Source: a virus (taxonomy: Duplodnaviria > Heunggongvirae > Uroviricota > Caudoviricetes). Taken from it: DNA of 14,743 nucleotides. Positions 2,435 to 14,743 of this stretch are shown here, one piece after another (within the stretch, counting starts at the first letter, position 1; the number at the start of each line of letters is the position of its first letter). The notes beneath the pieces were generated by a model. The model was not told the origin of the DNA and did not search any database. It worked only from the letters and a program-made list of their open reading frames with translations. The position numbers were made by a program, and so were the translations under genes. The DNA lies in the IMG/VR virus record IMGVR_UViG_2529293239_000005, positions 1 through 14,743 of that record; one strand, 5' to 3'.

Positions 2435-2755
2435 TTATCCCCGATTTGAATCAGTATTCGCTTTCTTTATGGCATTTAATGCATCTGTGGCATTTTCAAT
2501 GGTGCACCGTAACGAAATATCAAACTGCCCAAGCATTGCCAGTAACAAACCGATATTACCCATATCAATGCGCATAGCCTTTTCGTCATAGTCCTCATTT
2601 TCTGACGCATGCCACATCAGGCTACCAATTGACGCAATACCCATTGATATATTGTCAGTAGCCCCATCCGCAGCGGAATAAACCTTTTTAGCAATATCAT
2701 GCTCACAGTTAAAATGCGGATTAATCAGGTACTGGTAATTTGACATATCAGGCAT
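2435..2755 (-). CDS. Hypothetical protein, 106 aa
   Basis: ATG at 2755, 8-bp overlap with the upstream small gene, 6-bp gap to the next gene; tightly packed operon. No recognisable motif. Confidence 0.5.
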   Translation of the reverse strand: MPDMSNYQYLINPHFNCEHDIAKKVYSAADGATDNISMGIASIGSLMWHASENEDYDEKAMRIDMGNIGLLLAMLGQFDISLRCTIENATDALNAIKKANTDSNRG

Positions 2756-2951
2756 GGCACACCCCCTGACGAATACGGGCGGCGAATACCATCACGCAGC
2801 CAGCCGGGGATTGCTGGCGTGCTTCCTGTTCGCTGGTGGCCACGATGTGAATCACGCGCGGTTGTGCGGTGCTCAGGGCGATAAAACGCCAGATGTATTT
2901 ATTCAGGTCGTGCGAGTCCCGCCCTTGCGGGTGTGTGGTATGATTTCTCAT
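2748..2951 (-). CDS. Small protein, 67 aa; possibly an Icd-like host cell-division inhibitor (tentative)
   Basis: ATG at 2951 with GAGG SD about 6 nt upstream. The ORF track extends to a GTG at 3146 but that extension covers the operator/promoter region. Sequence (MRNHTTHPQGRDSHDLNKYIW...ATSEQEARQQ...) resembles, from memory only, small Icd-like proteins annotated in P4-like prophages; unverified. Confidence 0.45.
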   Translation of the reverse strand: MRNHTTHPQGRDSHDLNKYIWRFIALSTAQPRVIHIVATSEQEARQQSPAGCVMVFAARIRQGVCHA

Positions 2952-3048
2952 AGCTACCTCGATACGCTTTCTATCGTTGGTGGTTAGAAGCCCGGTTAGT
3001 GTTAGCGCACTGCCGGGTTTCGTCGTTTCTGCACCTTGCATCAACAAG

Positions 3049-3100
3049 GTGTTAAACACCAATTTAAGCCTAGGTGTTAAACACGTCAAGTGTTGAACAC
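3049..3100. promoter_or_regulatory. Three 11-bp perfect palindromes GTGTT-N-AACAC (candidate operators) in a divergent promoter region
   Basis: GTGTTAAACAC at 3049-3059 and 3074-3084, GTGTTGAACAC at 3090-3100, plus inverted repeat CACCTTG...CAAGGTG at 3033-3052. Candidate leftward promoter: -35 TTGACG (3090..3085), -10 TAAATT (3066..3061). Candidate rightward promoter: -35 TTGAAC (3093-3098) inside operator 3. Confidence 0.55.
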
Positions 3101-3149
3101 TTATTTTTTTCCTGCATACTGCATTTGTTTTTTGTAAGGGGTACACAAC

Positions 3150-3329
3150 ATGGCGACAAAAGCAGTAAACGCAAAATCACAAACAGTTGCGGCAAGGGTT
3201 CCGCATGAAGTTATGAACAATGTTGAGGCGGTAAAAATGCCTGGTGAAAGTACAGGGCAGTTTGTAACAGCAGCATTAAAGCGAGAAGTTGAATACCGCC
3301 AGCGTCGCAAGGCCAAAGAGCAGGAGTAA
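3150..3329 (+). CDS. Small DNA-binding protein, 59 aa, ribbon-helix-helix-like; candidate repressor
   Basis: ATG 3150 with AAGGGG SD 9 nt upstream. Segment TVAARVPHEVMNNVEAVK then GESTGQFVTAALKREVEY fits a beta-strand/helix/helix (Arc/CopG-like) pattern. Sits directly beside the palindromic operators, divergent from the replication operon. Below the ORF-track length cutoff. Confidence 0.45.
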   Translation: MATKAVNAKSQTVAARVPHEVMNNVEAVKMPGESTGQFVTAALKREVEYRQRRKAKEQE

Positions 3330-3386
3330 CCATCACCAGCGCCGTGGTGCGGTGAACTGTGGCGCACAGGGTTACAGGTATCTACG

Positions 3387-3566
3387 ATGACTGACAAATC
3401 ATTAAAGAAATTATCCTCATCCAAGAAAAAACAACGCAAAAATGCGGTAAACGAACATGAACCGGAGAGATTCGCACCATGTGCGTTTATCCTTGAGAAG
3501 TACCTTAAAGAGTATTCTAGGAAAATACGCTCATTGCAGGCATGGCAGCGAATCGAGCCAGACTGA
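3387..3566 (+). CDS. Hypothetical small basic protein, 59 aa (Lys-rich N-terminus)
   Basis: ATG 3387, weak SD; co-directional with the RHH-like gene and followed by an intrinsic terminator. A 188-aa minus-strand ORF (3101-3667) overlaps it but crosses the operators and the terminator. Confidence 0.35.
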   Translation: MTDKSLKKLSSSKKKQRKNAVNEHEPERFAPCAFILEKYLKEYSRKIRSLQAWQRIEPD

Positions 3567-3630
3567 TAGCATTGCCCACTAGCCGACAACCTGGTATTCT
3601 GGATATGCTCAAGTTTAGTGTTATGCCACT

Positions 3631-3658
3631 GGCGACCGCCCCCGGTCGCCTTTGTTTT
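3631..3658 (+). terminator. Rho-independent terminator of the rightward two-gene module
   Basis: GGCGACCG-cccc-CGGTCGCC perfect 8-bp stem followed by TTTGTTTT. Confidence 0.6.
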
Positions 3659-3676
3659 ATGTGTCATAGCTCCCCC

Positions 3677-3901
3677 CTAGGCTGCCTTACCTGAATTAAC
3701 GCGGTCACGGCTTTGCACCCAGTCCATAACTTCGGAAAGCAACCAGCCTACAGAACGCCCCCCAAGATTACGGCGAGACGGAAAGCCCCCTTTCTTCTCC
3801 AGTTCGTAGCGTGTAGTACGGCTGACGCCTGTTAACTTACGACATTCATCCTCACGAATTACGCGATCTGTTAGTGATTGAAATTGTGTATTTTGATTCA
3901 T
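3677..3901 (-). CDS. alpA: AlpA/Vis-family phage transcriptional regulator (MerR-like HTH)
   Basis: 74-aa ORF with AlpA-family pattern (...FP...GGRSVGW...E...W...). ATG 3901..3899; C-terminus GKAA verified codon by codon. Confidence 0.8.
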   Translation of the reverse strand: MNQNTQFQSLTDRVIREDECRKLTGVSRTTRYELEKKGGFPSRRNLGGRSVGWLLSEVMDWVQSRDRVNSGKAA

Positions 3902-3932
3902 AAAAACACCCTCGAACGTAACCGAACGAGGG
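3902..3932 (-). terminator. Terminator-like hairpin plus U-tract immediately 5' of the alpA start codon, sequestering its SD
   Basis: Minus-strand reading: CCCTCG-(12-nt loop)-CGAGGG-TGTTTTT-ATG. The 3' arm CGAGGG contains the only SD-like element for alpA. Candidate promoter just upstream: -35 TTGCAC (3962..3957), 16-nt spacer, -10 TAAGAT (3939..3934). Confidence 0.4.
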
Positions 3933-4004
3933 CATCTTATTTACCATAGCAGTTGGTGCAATATTGGAAAAATAAACTTTATTCTAATTTATCGTTCTCC
4001 ATGA

Positions 4005-4859
4005 TTAATTTTCATTAGATAACATTTTTCTTATTTTTTCTAAAGAATCGCTGCGCATTATTTTTTCTAAGAAGGGTTTTACAGTCTGAGCAATAGCAAA
4101 GGTGTCCTTTTCACCATCAGGATACAAAGATACGGCAAGCACCCCTAATGAAATTTTTCTATCTGTAGACAACTCCCAAGATAATAAGTCAATTAATGGG
4201 ATTATCTTATAATCAATAATTTTACGTCGTATGCTCTCCCAACTTCCTGCAATTGGTTTGTCTGGCTCAACAATTGAAAGTTCACTACGCCATTTTGGTA
4301 ATAGTTTTGTAAACGCTTCAATCAACTCATCATCTCTGTTATGTAGTAAGTCAACAGAAACAAGCATATTATCTAATGTATCAGAAAGGAGATTCACTGG
4401 TTCACGCATCACAGCCCAAAACATCCCATTATCTTCTGATATTAAACTTCCAACCATCTCATTATCTATGATGATTGGTTTATCCTTCCAATATCCTCTT
4501 TCCGCAGTCAGTTTATTAATCATTGATATATCAAACCTTGTTACAGGTTTAATTCCATCATCATAACTTAGCTCAATTAACTTCGGCTGCACTTTATGGT
4601 CATATTCTTTTTGTTTATCACAAAACCAATCGTCTTCTTTAAGCTCTCCAAATGGATCCCCGTAATTATTATGCAACGGGTATTCAGCACCAAACATAAA
4701 ACCATATTCAGGCATCTCAGAATGTTTCATTGTTAAATCATCTTGTCGCCAATATAATTGGCGAAATAGATCTTTATCCGACAAGTTTTCTAGGCAATCA
4801 TATTTGCCTAAATCAAATGACTTTGGTAAATCTTTTTTACTATTTACTTTTTTCGTCAT
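4005..4859 (-). CDS. Hypothetical protein, 284 aa; AT-rich cargo gene between int and alpA
   Basis: ATG at 4859..4857 overlaps the integrase TGA (4858..4856) as ATGA; GAGAGGG SD 5-6 nt upstream. Visibly AT-rich versus neighbours (estimated by eye, not computed). No recognisable catalytic motif. Confidence 0.7.
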   Translation of the reverse strand: MTKKVNSKKDLPKSFDLGKYDCLENLSDKDLFRQLYWRQDDLTMKHSEMPEYGFMFGAEYPLHNNYGDPFGELKEDDWFCDKQKEYDHKVQPKLIELSYDDGIKPVTRFDISMINKLTAERGYWKDKPIIIDNEMVGSLISEDNGMFWAVMREPVNLLSDTLDNMLVSVDLLHNRDDELIEAFTKLLPKWRSELSIVEPDKPIAGSWESIRRKIIDYKIIPLIDLLSWELSTDRKISLGVLAVSLYPDGEKDTFAIAQTVKPFLEKIMRSDSLEKIRKMLSNEN

Positions 4860-6076
4860 TGTATCCCTCTCAATATCACAATATTTTCTTTATATCCTGC
4901 AATCATATCAAGACGCTCAACCCATAGATTCAGTGCGTCCCGTTTCGCCTGCAAATAGCGTGAATGGTTATAGGTTTTTTGCTGACCTGGCATCTGATGC
5001 GCTGTGATGTGCTCCACGATATGCGGATCGACACCTAAATCATTCAGCATAGTTGTAAACGTGTGTCGGAAATCATGCAGCGTCCAGTGTTCCTGCTTAA
5101 GCCGCTTATGCGCATTTCGTCCATATTGCGCCACCGTGGTATCTTTTTTCAGTTCGCCGAGTAATAACCCAGTGTGTGCGTTTTGCTCCACCAGCTTCTG
5201 AATGAACGGCAAAATGCCATCAGGAATAGGTCGGAATATTGTTACCTTCGTTTTGCTGTGCTCTTTTGGCACTGTCCACAACATTTCTTTCAGATCCCAT
5301 TCTTTGATCTCTGAAAGTCTGATCTCTGCCGTTCTGCACCCGAACACAATTAACAAGCGCATTAACGCACTGTAATAGGGAGCGAACACATCACCATCAA
5401 TAGCGCGTAGAATTTCTTTTAGTTCGCTGTTGCTGTGCACTCTCTCGCGGATTTCTGCTCTCTTACCCACATCAGTAACGATCAAATCGTCCAGGGCGTT
5501 GCTAAACGCGTAGCGCCGCCTGCGGCAAAACTTTAGCGCCTGTTTGCATGTCTGCATGACATGGCCCGCTGCTACTGGTGCTTTTTTTCGTACGCGGTCA
5601 AAACATGTGATCCACTGCCTTGTATCACACTTATCAAGGGGAATTGCCCCGATATGGCAAATGATGTGCTTATCCATACGCTGCACCAGCTTTATGTAAT
5701 CTTTGCGGTTATCCTTCGCGTATTCCTCCAGCCAGTAGTTAATCGCTTCCTTCACCGTAACGGGTTTTAGTGCTTCCTGTACTGTGGCGCACAACTCATA
5801 CCGAGGGTTTTTACCCTCAGCCAGCCATGCCCGGCACTGTGTTCGCTTTTCCCTTGCAGATTTCAGCGACAATTCCGGGTAAGCCCCCAGCTTTAACCGC
5901 TCTGCGGCAACCTCACGGCCTCCCGTTCGGTACCGGAAATACCAGGTTAATTTGCCTCCCTTTGAGTGTTTAATCTCCAGCCCGCCCCCGTCGGAGTAAA
6001 AACGCTCTTTTTCTGCCTGGACAGCCACCAATTTTTTTAACGTTGAATCGCTCAGTTTGTTTAGTGCTTTTCCCAC
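4856..6076 (-). CDS. int: P4-type tyrosine integrase / site-specific recombinase
   Basis: 406-aa ORF; N-terminus typical of P4-family integrases (LSDSTLKKL...GKLTWYFRYR); C-terminal catalytic signature HDFRHTF and tyrosine in KTYNHSRY. GTG start at 6076 with AGAGGA SD 7 nt upstream. Confidence 0.9.
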   Translation of the reverse strand: MGKALNKLSDSTLKKLVAVQAEKERFYSDGGGLEIKHSKGGKLTWYFRYRTGGREVAAERLKLGAYPELSLKSAREKRTQCRAWLAEGKNPRYELCATVQEALKPVTVKEAINYWLEEYAKDNRKDYIKLVQRMDKHIICHIGAIPLDKCDTRQWITCFDRVRKKAPVAAGHVMQTCKQALKFCRRRRYAFSNALDDLIVTDVGKRAEIRERVHSNSELKEILRAIDGDVFAPYYSALMRLLIVFGCRTAEIRLSEIKEWDLKEMLWTVPKEHSKTKVTIFRPIPDGILPFIQKLVEQNAHTGLLLGELKKDTTVAQYGRNAHKRLKQEHWTLHDFRHTFTTMLNDLGVDPHIVEHITAHQMPGQQKTYNHSRYLQAKRDALNLWVERLDMIAGYKENIVILRGIQ

Positions 6077-7894: not shown

Positions 7895-9413
7895 CTATCC
7901 ATCCTGCACTTTCACATTAACGTTCACGTTTAGCGGCTGGTTTAGCCACGCTGGCGGCGTCATCAGTGGATTACCTGCCATATCAACTTTAAGCTGTGGC
8001 GCTGTAATCGTCGGCGTAGGAGGTACATAAGTTGGATTGGAGTAAGAGCTTACCCACCCTGTTTTATCTGCTGGTTTGGCAAAGTCTGGATTAGTCGGAA
8101 GGTCTGGACTATGGAGGAAATCCCACAGTTTACCCAGCGGGCTATCTTTTTTCAGATTGCCCCCGGCGGTGGTGTCCTGTCCATACATGGCGTCGTTAGC
8201 GTCATGACCTTATCCCAGGCATAATCCCCACCTACCGAACCGACCGCAATGCTCCAGCCAACAGGACCGCCAGAGAGAGCCGCCGCGCCGCCTACCTTGC
8301 CAACTTTCGGACCCCGACCCGGTTTGTTTGGCTTGTCTTTACCTTCCCCACCAGATCCGCCAGTAGTAGCGGCTTCAATGCCACCAATAGCGGCGATCCC
8401 TTTCATGACCCCCAGTAATTTGGTTAGTGGGTTAAGCATGGTCAACAACCATTTAAAGGCTACGCCCAACTTCCAGATAGACCCGGCGAACATAGCCACC
8501 CCGGCGGCGTATGCTGCCATTTCGCCCCAGGCTTTAAGCTGCTCACCAGTGATCCCCATCTTGCTGGCGTAATACTCAATAATGCGGAAGGTCAGGATCA
8601 CAGTGTCATGCAACTCTGTAAACGCATCTGTGGCACCCTCAACGATTTTCCCGGCAATATGCCCGAACATCTCAAAGGCCCCACCAGAGCCGTTAACAGC
8701 GGCGCTGATAGCGTCGAAAGCGCTGGTTAATTCGTTGCCGAAGCCAGAAGCAAAGAAGATGTTCATCGCGTTCTGCATACTGGTTTGCAGGCGCTGCCAG
8801 CTTGCCCGGTTGGACTTCATAGCCTTATCCAGAGCGCCGCCGTTACGAGCTGCGGCTTTCATCTGTTTAGCCACTTCCGGGAGGATGTCCTTAGAGAACA
8901 GCTTCCCTTGTTGCATCAGGTCAAACAGATCCTTTTCTGTAAGGTTGGTTGTCCCTTTCATCTGGTTGAGAGCCTTAACGAACAGACCCACAGCCCCCGG
9001 GAGAGCTTCGGACAACTGGCCTTTGAGTTCTTCACTCATTACCGTTCCTTTAGACATCATCTGATTCAAACTTTTCAAAGCGCGGCTGGCTTCATCGGCT
9101 GAAGCACCTGTAACAAGGCCCCATTCACTGGCACCCTCAAAGATGGATCGCATCTGGTCTTTAGGGAGCTTGTCACCAACAGCGGCGGCAAACTGAGTGT
9201 AATCACGGGAAGTCTTGAGGAGATCCAGCCCCAAACGGTTGGATTGATCACGGAGATAATCAAACTCTTTAGCGGCCTTATCTGTGGAACCGGTGATCGC
9301 TGTCAGACCAGAAAGCGCGGATTCAAAATCCTGTCCGGTGGTCATGATCTTGCCGCTCAGCGCCACAGTTGCGGCAATGGTGATCGCCCCGCCTGCACCC
9401 TCGATCATGGAGG
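7895..9413 (-). pseudogene. Phage tail tape-measure protein gene remnant: 5'-truncated by IS629 and frameshifted
   Basis: ORF 8152-9408 has the Ala/Gly/Leu/Ser-rich, low-complexity composition recalled for tape-measure N-terminal regions (e.g. the stretch ...ELKGQLSEALPGAVGLFVKALNQM...). Its reading frame stays open up to the IS boundary at 9414. ORF 7895-8188 continues in a different frame with a 37-bp overlap, implying a 1-bp indel near 8204-8215. Confidence 0.7.
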
Positions 9414-9455
9414 TGAACCGCCCCGGGTTTCCTGGAGAGTGTTTTATCTGTGAAC

Positions 9456-10346
9456 TCAGGCTGCCAGATCATCGTTTCCGATGGAAGCATAATAAGCTTT
9501 TTCTGCTTCTGCCGGAGGGATGTGGCCCAGCCTTTCCAGCAATCGTCGATTATTATACCAGTCCACCCACGTGAGTGTGGCCAGTTCCACTTCTGCACGG
9601 TTTTTCCAGCTCTTACGGTGTATTACCTCCGCTTTGTAAAGACCATTGATGCTCTCCGCCATCGCGTTGTCATACGAGTCGCCTGTACTTCCTGTTGATG
9701 CCAGTAATCCGGCTTCCTTAAGCCGCTGTGTGTAGGCCAGCGATACATACTGAGAACCTTTATCACTGTGATGGACCGTGCCGGACGGTCGACGGGCCCA
9801 TAACGCCTGCTCCAGTGCATCCAGCACGAATGTCGTCTCCATGGACGATGAGACCCGCCACCCCACAATGTATCCGGCAAACACATCAATGATGAACGCC
9901 ACATAGACGAAGCCCTGCCATGTGCTGACGTAAGTAAAATCAGCTACCCACAGCTGGTCAGGTCGTTCTGCCACGAACTGACGGTTTACGCGGTCGCCTG
10001 CGGCAACGGCTTTCCGGCTGATGGTCGTACGGACCTTTTTACCCCGGAGAACACCGGCAAGTCCCATAACCGCCATGAGACGTGCCACAGTGCATCTGGC
10101 CACTCTGATACCTTCCCGTAACAACTGACGCCAGACTTTACGCACACCGTATACCTGATGATTCCCATCGTATACGCGCAGTATCTCTTTCTTCAGCCAG
10201 TCATCGCGCTGCGCACGGGCACTGCGTTTATCCGGATGATGTCGCTGTTGCTGACAGTGGTAATACGTTGACGGGGCAATATGCAGTTCGCTGCATAGCG
10301 GTCCGACCCCGTACTGCTCACGCAGCTTATCCAGCAGTGGCATCAT
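9456..10346 (-). CDS. IS3-family transposase OrfB (DDE catalytic domain), normally made as an OrfAB fusion by -1 frameshifting
   Basis: 296-aa ORF recognised from memory as IS629-type OrfB (integrase-core DDE transposase); overlaps orfA in the -1 frame at the A6 run. Confidence 0.85.
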
Positions 10347-10669
10347 TTTTTCCAGAGGCGGTCGAACTCCGCCTTCGCAAAATAAGCGGAAGCCTGGCGA
10401 AGGATATCGTTACTGCGGCGCAGTTCACGATTTTCACGCTCCAGCTCTTTCAGACGCTGACGTTCAGCGGTGGTGAGCCCGCCATCACCGCCCCCGGTAT
10501 CCCGCTCATGCTGGCGAACCCAGACACGCAGAGTCTCCGGCGTACAGCCAATCTTTGGAGCAATGGAACAAATTGTCGCCCATTGTGAGTCATATTCGCC
10601 CTGACTTTCCAGAACCATACGGACTGCCCGTTGACGGACTTCGGGGGAAAAACGAGTATTTTTAGTCAT
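10343..10669 (-). CDS. IS3-family transposase OrfA (HTH, leucine-zipper region)
   Basis: 108-aa [22 protein letters not shown]..., recognised as IS629/IS1203-type OrfA; ends in the A6 frameshift window. Confidence 0.85.
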
Positions 10670-14528: not shown

Positions 14529-14743
14529 CGGACACTACCATTTGTTCTTTTTTTAAGCAGCCATCTGATGATATTTTTCCCTGAAGGCTGCCGGGGAGAT
14601 ATTCCCCAGACGAGAGTGACGACGCTGACGATTGTAGAAAATCTCAATGTATTCCCGTATTACTGAGATGGCTTCATCCCGGTTATTAAAACGATAGTGG
14701 CTCAGGCTCTCATTTTTCAGCGTTCCCCAGAAGCTTTCCATCG
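14515..14743 (-). mobile_element. Second IS3-family element (partial), terminus near 14515-14530
   Basis: Transposase stop at 14553-14555 followed by about 25-40 bp of presumptive terminal inverted repeat; plus-strand TGTACTGGCAATAGCGGACAC resembles IS3/IS150-group termini. Exact boundary not determinable here. Confidence 0.55.
14553..14743 (-). CDS. IS3-family transposase OrfB, C-terminal end (partial; continues beyond the window)
   Basis: C-terminal sequence ...FWGTLKNESLSHYRFNNRDEAISVIREYIEIFYNRQRRHSRLGNISPAAFREKYHQMAA is typical of IS3-family DDE transposase tails. Different from the IS629 copy at 9414-10723. Confidence 0.75.
   Translation of the reverse strand, partial: MESFWGTLKNESLSHYRFNNRDEAISVIREYIEIFYNRQRRHSRLGNISPAAFREKYHQMAA

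Follow-up and report, generated by a model that had tools for sequence, protein, structure and literature searches.

Introduction

The immI region of phage P22 combines two ribbon-helix-helix (RHH) repressors, Arc and Mnt, with the sar antisense RNA and the ant gene. In phage P4, translation of eta prevents premature transcription termination and permits read-through, Kil is a truncated form of Eta that arises from an internal promoter, and the CI immunity RNA is located inside eta (as stated in a passage of PMC10111431 citing Forti 1999). In the Staphylococcus aureus pathogenicity islands (SaPIs) and other Gram-positive phage-inducible chromosomal islands (PICIs), the gene of the repressor Stl or Rpr is divergent from the replication module and the island is kept quiescent (PMC6092414). 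For the Gram-negative PICIs and the capsid-forming PICIs (cf-PICIs), the activator AlpA has been placed in control, and whether a global repressor exists has been called unclear (Fillol-Salom et al., PMC6092414). The locus described here lies in a 14,743-nucleotide (nt) stretch of IMG/VR record IMGVR_UViG_2529293239_000005, referred to as the window, in which a phage satellite is integrated into the Escherichia coli chromosome; the host DNA around the element carries metG and mrp/apbC. Between the alpA and icd genes of this satellite, two short open reading frames (ORFs) on the plus strand, ORF1 and ORF2, overlap a longer ORF of 188 amino acids (aa) on the minus strand.

We interpret the region as the part of a Gram-negative phage satellite, of the int-alpA-icd-primase type, that governs its immunity and control. 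The explanation that we consider probable is that it contains an ORF1-ORF2 immunity operon and, antisense to it, a translated frame comparable to P4 eta. Conservation of ORF1, ORF2, and a plus-strand terminator behind them extends to many satellites of this type in E. coli, and DNA similar to positions 3040-3680 is present in 1693 of 5426 complete E. coli genomes (~31%).

ORF1 and its operators

ORF1 (3150-3329, plus strand; 59 aa) belongs to the YlcI/YnfO family. Residues 9-50 align with positions 1-42 of the NCBIfam model NF041551, which is the whole of the 42-position model, with a score of 59.7 bits (cut-off 30; expectation value (E) 2.1e-16). A match to phrog_949 was also found (E 5e-22), and the Prokaryotic Genome Annotation Pipeline (PGAP) gives the name YlcI/YnfO to ORF1 in relatives. 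The sequence fits the RHH pattern of an N-terminal strand followed by two helices that are joined by a G-x-S/T/N turn. A preliminary description of the locus had suggested an RHH fold and structure prediction as a way to check it. The AlphaFold2 model (predicted local distance difference test (pLDDT) = 79.6) has an RHH-like strand-helix-helix arrangement, with an extended segment at residues 11-18 and helices at residues 19-28 and 35-58. ORF1 was not recognized as an RHH protein by sequence models or by the sequences of solved RHH structures: no Pfam RHH model matched at E up to 1, and a search of PDB sequences with an ORF1 profile returned nothing significant and none better than E 0.79. A Foldseek comparison of the model against the PDB returned nothing at E below 4.

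Three operator copies are located between the icd and ORF1 start codons at 3047-3100, with AGGTGTTAAACAC at 3047-3059 and 3072-3084 and AAGTGTTGAACAC at 3088-3100. They share the motif GTGTT(A/G)AACAC (repeat family D1), the core of which is the palindrome GTGTT-A-AACAC. Counted from the ORF1 ATG, the equivalent 11-mers of relatives occupy positions close to -103, -78, and -32 (or close to -58). At least ten types of the ORF1 N-terminal strand can be distinguished, each with a private GTG-N5-CAC operator at fixed positions, and strand residues 11-15 covary one-to-one with the triplicated operators. The pairs comprise TVAAR with GTGTTAAACAC, KLEAR with GTGTCAGCCAC, SVTAR with GTGTAAGACAC, KLQAR with CTGGATTCCAG, ALKAR with GTGTGGCCCAC, and KRIDAR with GTGTCGGACAC. 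Two natural mosaics reveal that the operator type follows ORF1 and not ORF2. The first, L083, combines the ORF1 of the window with an ORF2 that is 51% identical, and the operators of the window are retained. The second, L012, combines an ORF2 that is 97% identical with an ORF1 that is 53% identical, and the operators differ.

Because the operator types pair with variants of the ORF1 N-terminal strand and follow ORF1, these comparisons argue that ORF1 is very likely the repressor and the specificity determinant of the element. An RHH repressor of the divergent replication operon was the role first suggested for ORF1, and it is supported by the family membership, the RHH-like model, and the covariation of strand and operator.

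A search of the literature found no role assigned to YlcI/YnfO, and in the one retrieved paper that names the family it is listed only as a prophage-associated accessory protein. Like YlcI of prophage DLP12 and YnfO of prophage Qin, ORF1 passes NF041551, and its strand-helix-helix sequence pattern is common to the K-12 YlcI. In contrast to the K-12 protein, with which it is 22% identical and which adjoins nohD in a lambdoid prophage without a long antisense ORF, ORF1 is given a role here by its operators and its genomic context. The arrangement resembles SaPI Stl/Rpr in that a divergent repressor gene stands opposite a replication module; however, the satellite protein is much smaller and has no relation to it. 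The P22 immI region is not related in sequence to the locus, and the two further differ in that icd-primase takes the place of ant as the target and that the cassette lies antisense within a translated frame.

In two loci, L003 (2207-2380, plus strand) and L007 (1123-1314, plus strand), a different Arc-like RHH gene encoding 57-63 aa occupies the YlcI-type place upstream of ORF2, and L007 retains a remnant of the YlcI-type C-terminus (..EIKRRQRRKAKELE). The repressor thus seems to be exchangeable as a module, and both ORF2 and the open antisense frame are retained when it changes.

Predicted promoters, spacer hairpin and terminator

A consensus scan predicts a sigma-70 promoter for the icd-primase operon on the minus strand at 3061..3089, with a -35 element TTGACG at 3089..3084, a 17-nt spacer, and a -10 element TAAATT at 3066..3061. 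This predicted promoter may be considered equivalent to P4 PLE. The second operator copy (O2) overlaps it, O1 and O3 flank it, and the sequence CGTCAAG, which corresponds to TTGACG on the minus strand, is retained across operator types. For the ORF1-ORF2 transcript we infer a plus-strand -10 element at 3115..3120 that reads CATACT in the window and TATACT in most relatives; in this -10 region, GTATACTG is kept at a fixed position in variants that are otherwise divergent. The operators flank this conserved TATACT-like element upstream of ORF1. The ORF1 Shine-Dalgarno sequence AAGGGG (3136-3141) and the Shine-Dalgarno-like AGG of ORF2 (3376-3378) are both retained in relatives.

The 57-nt spacer between ORF1 and ORF2 contains a small hairpin on the plus strand, GCGCCGT ... 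GTGGCGC (3339..3365), and every spacer variant retains its arms GCGCC/GGCGC. In the window the two inner pairs are G-U, and in L027 they are Watson-Crick. Since these G-U pairs form only in plus-strand RNA, the hairpin is a candidate processing or translation-control element for ORF2.

The transcript is predicted to end at an intrinsic terminator on the plus strand (3631..3660) that is composed of a stem at 3631-3650, GGCGACCG-CCCC-CGGTCGCC, followed by TTTGTTTTAT. The end of the terminator is 7 nt short of the start codon of the antisense ORF. Among relatives, the stems vary by compensatory changes (GGCGACC/GGTCGCC, GGCCACC/GGTGGCC, GCGGCTCC/GGGGCCGC, and AGGCTGATA/TATCAGCCT). The variants are nearly always accompanied by a T-rich tail, mostly TTTGTTTT, and this tail is present on the plus strand only.

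Coding strand of the ORF1-ORF2 region

Since the window contains 108 ORFs of at least 40 aa, an ORF of 59 aa is by itself weak evidence for a gene. ORF1 and ORF2 (3387-3566, plus strand; 59 aa) were followed in 80 related IMG/VR loci that had been gathered by similarity to ORF2. Both are intact in these loci with respect to start codon, Shine-Dalgarno sequence, and stop codon, across an identity span of 34-100% for ORF1 and 49-100% for ORF2. Codon-position periodicity was dropped as a strand test because ORF1, ORF2, and the 188-aa minus ORF share third codon positions. It was replaced by a substitution score calibrated with controls, in which amino-acid substitutions among the 80 loci were compared in all six frames with the expectation from nucleotide changes. 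The icd and alpA genes, which code on one strand only, served as controls.

ORF1 scored 71.4 in its true frame and 46.0 in the antisense frame that shares its wobble positions, with ratios of nonsynonymous to synonymous polymorphism (pN/pS) of 0.38 vs 0.50. The corresponding scores for ORF2 were 45.5 and 27.4 (pN/pS 0.35 vs 0.45). Among the controls, icd scored 16.5 and 11.5 (pN/pS 0.385 vs 0.496) and alpA scored 82.8 and 50.1 (pN/pS 0.378 vs 0.481). Because the true-to-shadow ratios of ORF1 and ORF2 equal those of the single-coding controls, the plus frames are regarded as protein-constrained, and the scores indicate that the minus frame opposite them is a mere shadow at the amino-acid level. 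The two-gene plus-strand module with its own terminator had been proposed in the preliminary description; its coordinates were right, and it is borne out by family matches, conservation, the substitution pattern, and the compensatory stems.

The antisense frame

The antisense frame (3101..3667, minus strand; 188 aa in the window) starts at an ATG at 3667 behind a Shine-Dalgarno sequence, GGGGGAG, at 3676..3670. Its upstream partner is alpA (3677-3901, minus strand), which encodes the 74-aa activator (Pfam Phage_AlpA, E 5e-16). The ATG is 9 nt past the alpA stop codon (3679..3677), and a Shine-Dalgarno sequence and ATG are found 9-11 nt past the alpA stop in several alpA types. In most relatives, the frame continues in frame into the Icd-like gene (2748-2951, minus strand; 67 aa in the window) to give an ORF of about 306 aa, and stop-free stretches of up to 300-690 codons are observed.

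In about 30 of 42 distinct variants, the Icd frame is stop-free all the way from the intergenic segment across ORF1, the spacer, and ORF2 to the end of the next 100 nt; in the segment between Icd and ORF1 alone, 4-9 stops are present in the other two minus frames. The lengths of this segment (190, 193, 196, 199, and 205 nt) are all equal modulo 3, and in shuffles of the 199-nt segment the probability of no stop in a given frame was 0.016. Synonymous resampling leads to an expectation of 0.93 antisense-frame stops per ORF1 and 0.50 per ORF2, and none was observed in 23 + 11 + 28 distinct proteins (62). In seven further genes of the element, antisense-frame stops are as numerous as expected. Where nothing overlaps the frame its pN/pS is 0.93, and where a different RHH gene replaces ORF1 it is still open. 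The frame is selected only for openness, without an amino-acid constraint of its own.

The preliminary description had set this minus-strand frame against the two plus-strand genes, as the one that might prove to be conserved and translated. It is a real ORF and is kept open, and to that extent the suspicion was justified; it carries no amino-acid constraint of its own, and the plus-strand ORFs are protein-constrained. The choice between the minus frame and the plus genes is not either/or, because the minus frame is also selected, only for openness. The observed patterns argue that both strands of the region are used, since the minus frame is the counterpart of P4 eta and is under selection to stay open.

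The comparison with P4 can be made at several points. The P4 ORF at 8168..8812 directly follows vis, an AlpA homologue, and ends in an Icd-like domain (NF033153, E 7.8e-21). This ORF, historically labelled 'cI', is taken to be the eta/kil frame. The same NCBIfam model matches Icd of the window (E 1.9e-19) and the 306-aa fused ORF of L001 (E 5.8e-19), so that a Kil/Icd-like domain forms the C-terminal part of the long frame. The assignment of the Icd-like gene as the counterpart of P4 kil is based on this model, on the PGAP annotation, and on the P4 comparison. Since a BLASTP comparison of the Icd frame of the window with the P4 frame was insignificant (E 0.11), the link to P4 rests on the shared model NF033153. 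A search of the Icd protein against a phage collection gave one match only, and tblastn did not find P4. Both left operons present an AlpA/Vis regulator, a long ORF by its stop codon, a C-terminal Icd-like Kil of 65-67 aa, and a primase operon in the same order, and an internal promoter is predicted upstream of kil/icd in both.

The two systems differ in their immunity factors. That of P4, the CI RNA, lies inside eta and is encoded on the eta strand. In the satellite, a protein repressor operon (RHH protein and ORF2) lies on the strand opposite the eta-like frame with its own operators and terminator, and a candidate cis-antisense RNA covers the icd ribosome-binding site. An immunity RNA with target sites inside the long ORF was not found: Rfam searches detected no C4/isrK RNA (the P4/P1-type immunity RNA) at the gathering score, and none appeared in 2600-4100 when E values up to 10 were admitted. 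As seqA/seqC-like targets, short repeats of direct and inverted type (D2, D3, and I3) were considered and rejected, as they are not colinear and occur at chance level.

In the window, the frame is interrupted for want of a single base. The homopolymer at 3104..3110 is composed of seven T (A7 if read on the minus strand), where each of the nine relatives that were examined has T8, and the missing base creates a stop at 3103..3101 that uncouples the eta-like frame from Icd. A long kil-frame ORF starting by the alpA/vis stop is thus absent from the window and present in nine close relatives. The difference between T7 and T8 may reflect either a genuine change, inactivating or of the phase type, or an error in sequencing the homopolymer. 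In addition, the T7 run lies within the spacer of the predicted ORF1 promoter. The minus frame is a second layer of the same control region, P4-eta-like and broken in the window copy.

From the stop-free, sequence-unconstrained nature of the frame and the precedent of P4, translation of the eta-like frame would serve anti-termination. It is rather unlikely, though worth weighing, that ORF1 and ORF2 are real and that the minus frame is kept open for a reason other than anti-polar translation. A full-length Eta-like protein could be functional with a sequence-tolerant (disordered) N-terminal extension, or ribosome traffic could displace the repressor or unfold the antisense RNA. Such roles would suit a frame that is fused exactly in frame to Icd rather than merely ending nearby, and the passage cited from PMC10111431 gives no function for the P4 Eta protein itself. 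They agree less well with the lack of amino-acid constraint above shadow level in the minus frame, with the persistence of frameshifted copies, including that of the window, and with P4 as a direct precedent for translation-dependent read-through.

A candidate antisense RNA at icd

A candidate cis-antisense small RNA is located on the plus strand at 2936..3031, over the Icd 5' untranslated region and Shine-Dalgarno sequence. It is preceded by an extended -10 element, TGgTATGAT (2936-2944), and would start near 2952. The RNA may be considered in terms of two hairpins. Hairpin 1 (2960-2976) has an invariant stem and a hypervariable loop, and hairpin 2 (2990-3018) is terminator-like and followed by a T-rich tail. 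In hairpin 2, compensatory changes are found at 8 of 12 pairs. Over all 17 pairs of the structure, 91% of cells are paired (87.5% for hairpin 2 alone) vs 29-60% when the partners are slid, and the frequent G-U pairs fit the plus strand only. The element at 2952-3031 has the appearance of a cis-antisense RNA that covers the ribosome-binding site of icd.

The best Rfam match, at 2952-3024, is symR (RF01809), with a sub-threshold 32.8 bits against a gathering score of 61 (E 6e-4). As in SymR/SymE, the candidate starts by the start codon of a toxic gene and is composed of two hairpins and a terminator. However, the score is far below gathering and the target is Icd-like rather than SymE, making the resemblance architectural only.

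A model of the control region

In the proposed model, one short plus-strand transcript would begin at the promoter whose -10 lies near 3115-3120, end at the 3631-3660 terminator, and encode ORF1 and ORF2. ORF1 would act as a ribbon-helix-helix dimer and recognize the GTG-N5-CAC operators at 3047-3100 through its N-terminal strand (about residues 10-17). Bound to these operators, it would shut the divergent icd-primase promoter and probably also regulate its own, and this repression would keep the satellite quiescent and define its immunity type. When a helper phage turns on alpA, minus-strand transcription would enter the region from the other side. The eta-like frame, presumably coupled in translation to alpA, would accompany this transcription antisense through ORF2, ORF1, and the operators into Icd, with selection maintaining its translation and not the sequence of its product. 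By analogy with P4 eta, this translation would prevent premature (Rho-dependent) termination, so that the replication genes are reached. Read-through driven by alpA would also be expected to interfere with the convergent repressor operon.

Several points weigh against this explanation. About a quarter of the variants are frameshifted in the eta-like frame and the copy of the window is broken at T7, so continuous translation cannot be indispensable in every copy. Promoter-like sites are no more frequent in the region than in shuffles, and the promoters are consensus guesses. As similarity to ORF2 was the basis for collecting the loci, ascertainment accounts in part for ORF2 being intact, and the variants among the loci share phylogenetic kinship. 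With 10 clusters among 1.84 billion representatives, the ORF2 family is very small, and the model shows no more than a helix; for these reasons the role given to ORF2 is a guess.

That ORF1 and ORF2 mainly target a helper phage or incoming relatives, in the sense of superinfection immunity or interference, and not the satellite's own replication operon is improbable. The two genes are convergent to the rest of the element and have their own terminator, much like lysogeny-expressed cargo, the YlcI/YnfO homologues of DLP12 adjoin phage packaging genes, and the specificity types are numerous, all of which would fit such a role. The cognate operators, however, are at fixed positions inside the divergent control region of the satellite itself.

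Returning to repression of the icd-primase operon by ORF1, the locus provides a concrete candidate for a global repressor of Gram-negative PICIs, namely a 59-aa RHH protein with cognate operators on the control region of the replication operon. The natural specificity variants render this hypothesis testable by swaps. The region would also be an example of strand-overlapping selection, in which one strand is selected for protein sequence and the opposite strand only for translatability, and it would bring the mechanism known from P4 eta into an immunity cassette based on protein.

A bolder and more tentative proposal is that the region works as a two-strand switch. An operon encoding an RHH repressor of many specificity types and a basic coiled-coil protein would be set against a translated spacer, kept stop-free by selection for the sole purpose of letting ribosomes accompany alpA-driven transcription across the repressor operon and its operators into icd-primase, with a bistable decision as the outcome. 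Convergent transcription and translation, together with the icd cis-antisense RNA, would make the decision bistable, and the A8/T8 run, being both part of a promoter spacer and a codon run, could switch copies off by slippage. If true, the Gram-negative PICIs would gain the repressor that has been thought missing.

ORF2

ORF2 is highly basic, as was recognized at the outset. It contains 10 Lys and 5 Arg residues with an isoelectric point of 9.9 and a net charge of +7, all of which is in residues 1-22. The protein may thus be divided into a Lys/Arg-rich N-terminal tail and a long amphipathic helix. It matches phrog_21027 (E 5e-30), and its homologues are restricted to Escherichia (29 clusters); a scan of one-genome-per-species contigs with ORF2 patterns produced no confirmed relative. 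PGAP does not annotate ORF2 in relatives, and it is mostly absent from RefSeq. The motif RFAPCAFxLEKFLKEY is invariant, with conservative changes in the most distant members, and a heptad pattern is formed by F29/L36/Y43/L50 and A33/L40/I47. AlphaFold2 predicts a confident helix at residues 29-54 or 30-56 (pLDDT about 90 for the latter span), and structure matches to this model are generic coiled coils only. Structure prediction, which had been recommended for both proteins, was informative for ORF2 to the extent of a single helix with a coiled-coil-like pattern and no toxin fold.

ORF2 is regarded as a real protein that is presumably co-transcribed with the repressor. Given the basic tail and the coiled-coil-like helix of the model, a dimeric accessory factor that binds nucleic acid or a partner may be offered as a guess.

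A small antitoxin-toxin pair had been raised as the alternative to a repressor and co-factor. That ORF1 and ORF2 form a type II addiction module, with an accessory function instead of core regulation, is now very improbable. ORF2 could not be assigned to a known toxin family or fold; searches of Pfam, NCBIfam, and PADLOC returned no match to a toxin model or to a model of any other family, and structural matches to the single predicted helix are confined to coiled coils. An automatic IMG name, RelE, was given to ORF2 in one instance and was rejected, as no BLAST alignment to RelE was obtained. The operators coincide in part with the promoter predicted for the divergent icd-primase operon and so do not point to autoregulation alone. 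Finally, the repressor gene is swapped for other RHH types while ORF2 stays, which is unexpected of a co-evolving toxin-antitoxin pair.

Annotation of the locus

It is scarcely credible that only the long minus-strand 'Icd-like' ORF is real and that ORF1 and ORF2 are chance antisense shadows, as many draft annotations imply, for although the long ORF matches 387 database clusters (many of the best 120, with 303-320 aa, being named Icd-like protein), a minus-strand Icd-like pseudogene is marked by PGAP over the ORF2 region in some genomes, and the minus frame is open in most variants, the amino-acid-level constraint is in the plus frames, the minus frame behaves just like the shadow frames of the control genes and has a pN/pS of 0.93 in its non-overlapped part, the ORF1 family is also present in lambdoid prophages, where no antisense ORF accompanies it, the operator type changes with ORF1, the terminator is plus-strand-specific, and the 188-aa minus product is Cys/Ser/Phe-rich and without a family match.

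Public annotations of the equivalent of 3101-3667 are incompatible with each other and take the form of YlcI/YnfO with a 67-aa Icd, an 'Icd-like protein' of 303-320 aa, or an 'Icd-like pseudogene'. This presents a practical problem, as the same stretch is named incompatibly in public genomes and ORF2 is usually missed.

Genomic context of the satellite

The main satellite genes of the window are all on the minus strand. An integrase gene (4856-6076) is followed by a DUF6387 gene (4005-4859) that lies between it and alpA. The ORF1-ORF2 module is located between alpA and icd, and icd is the first gene of an operon in the order icd, a hypothetical gene, DUF4222, and a D5/P4-type primase gene (315-2147). 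A relative that is 99.9% identical to the window continues into a gene encoding a fusion of a ClpP protease and a major capsid protein; the window stops short of there. The element has the layout of Gram-negative PICIs and cf-PICIs, with int, alpA, a variable zone, and primase in one orientation and capsid genes downstream. Because the near-identical relative also has capsid genes, the satellite is assigned to the capsid-forming (cf-PICI) type.

The DUF6387 gene lies in a stretch of low GC content (0.34-0.38 vs about 0.5 in the surroundings) and looks like variable cargo. A PADLOC analysis of ORF1, ORF2, DUF6387, Icd, and neighbouring genes gave zero defence-system matches. No tRNA gene was found across the whole window. 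A fragment of a tape-measure-protein gene (8152-9408, Pfam TMP_3) adjoins an insertion sequence (IS) element of the IS3 family, composed of orfA (10343-10669), orfB (9456-10346), and an ALIL frameshift pseudoknot (10272-10388). Together they form a prophage remnant at 7895-10669 that is unrelated to the satellite. A second IS3-type transposase fragment is present at 14553-14741. The near-identical element of strain FCI56 adjoins rcnR instead, and the same satellite thus occupies different chromosomal sites.

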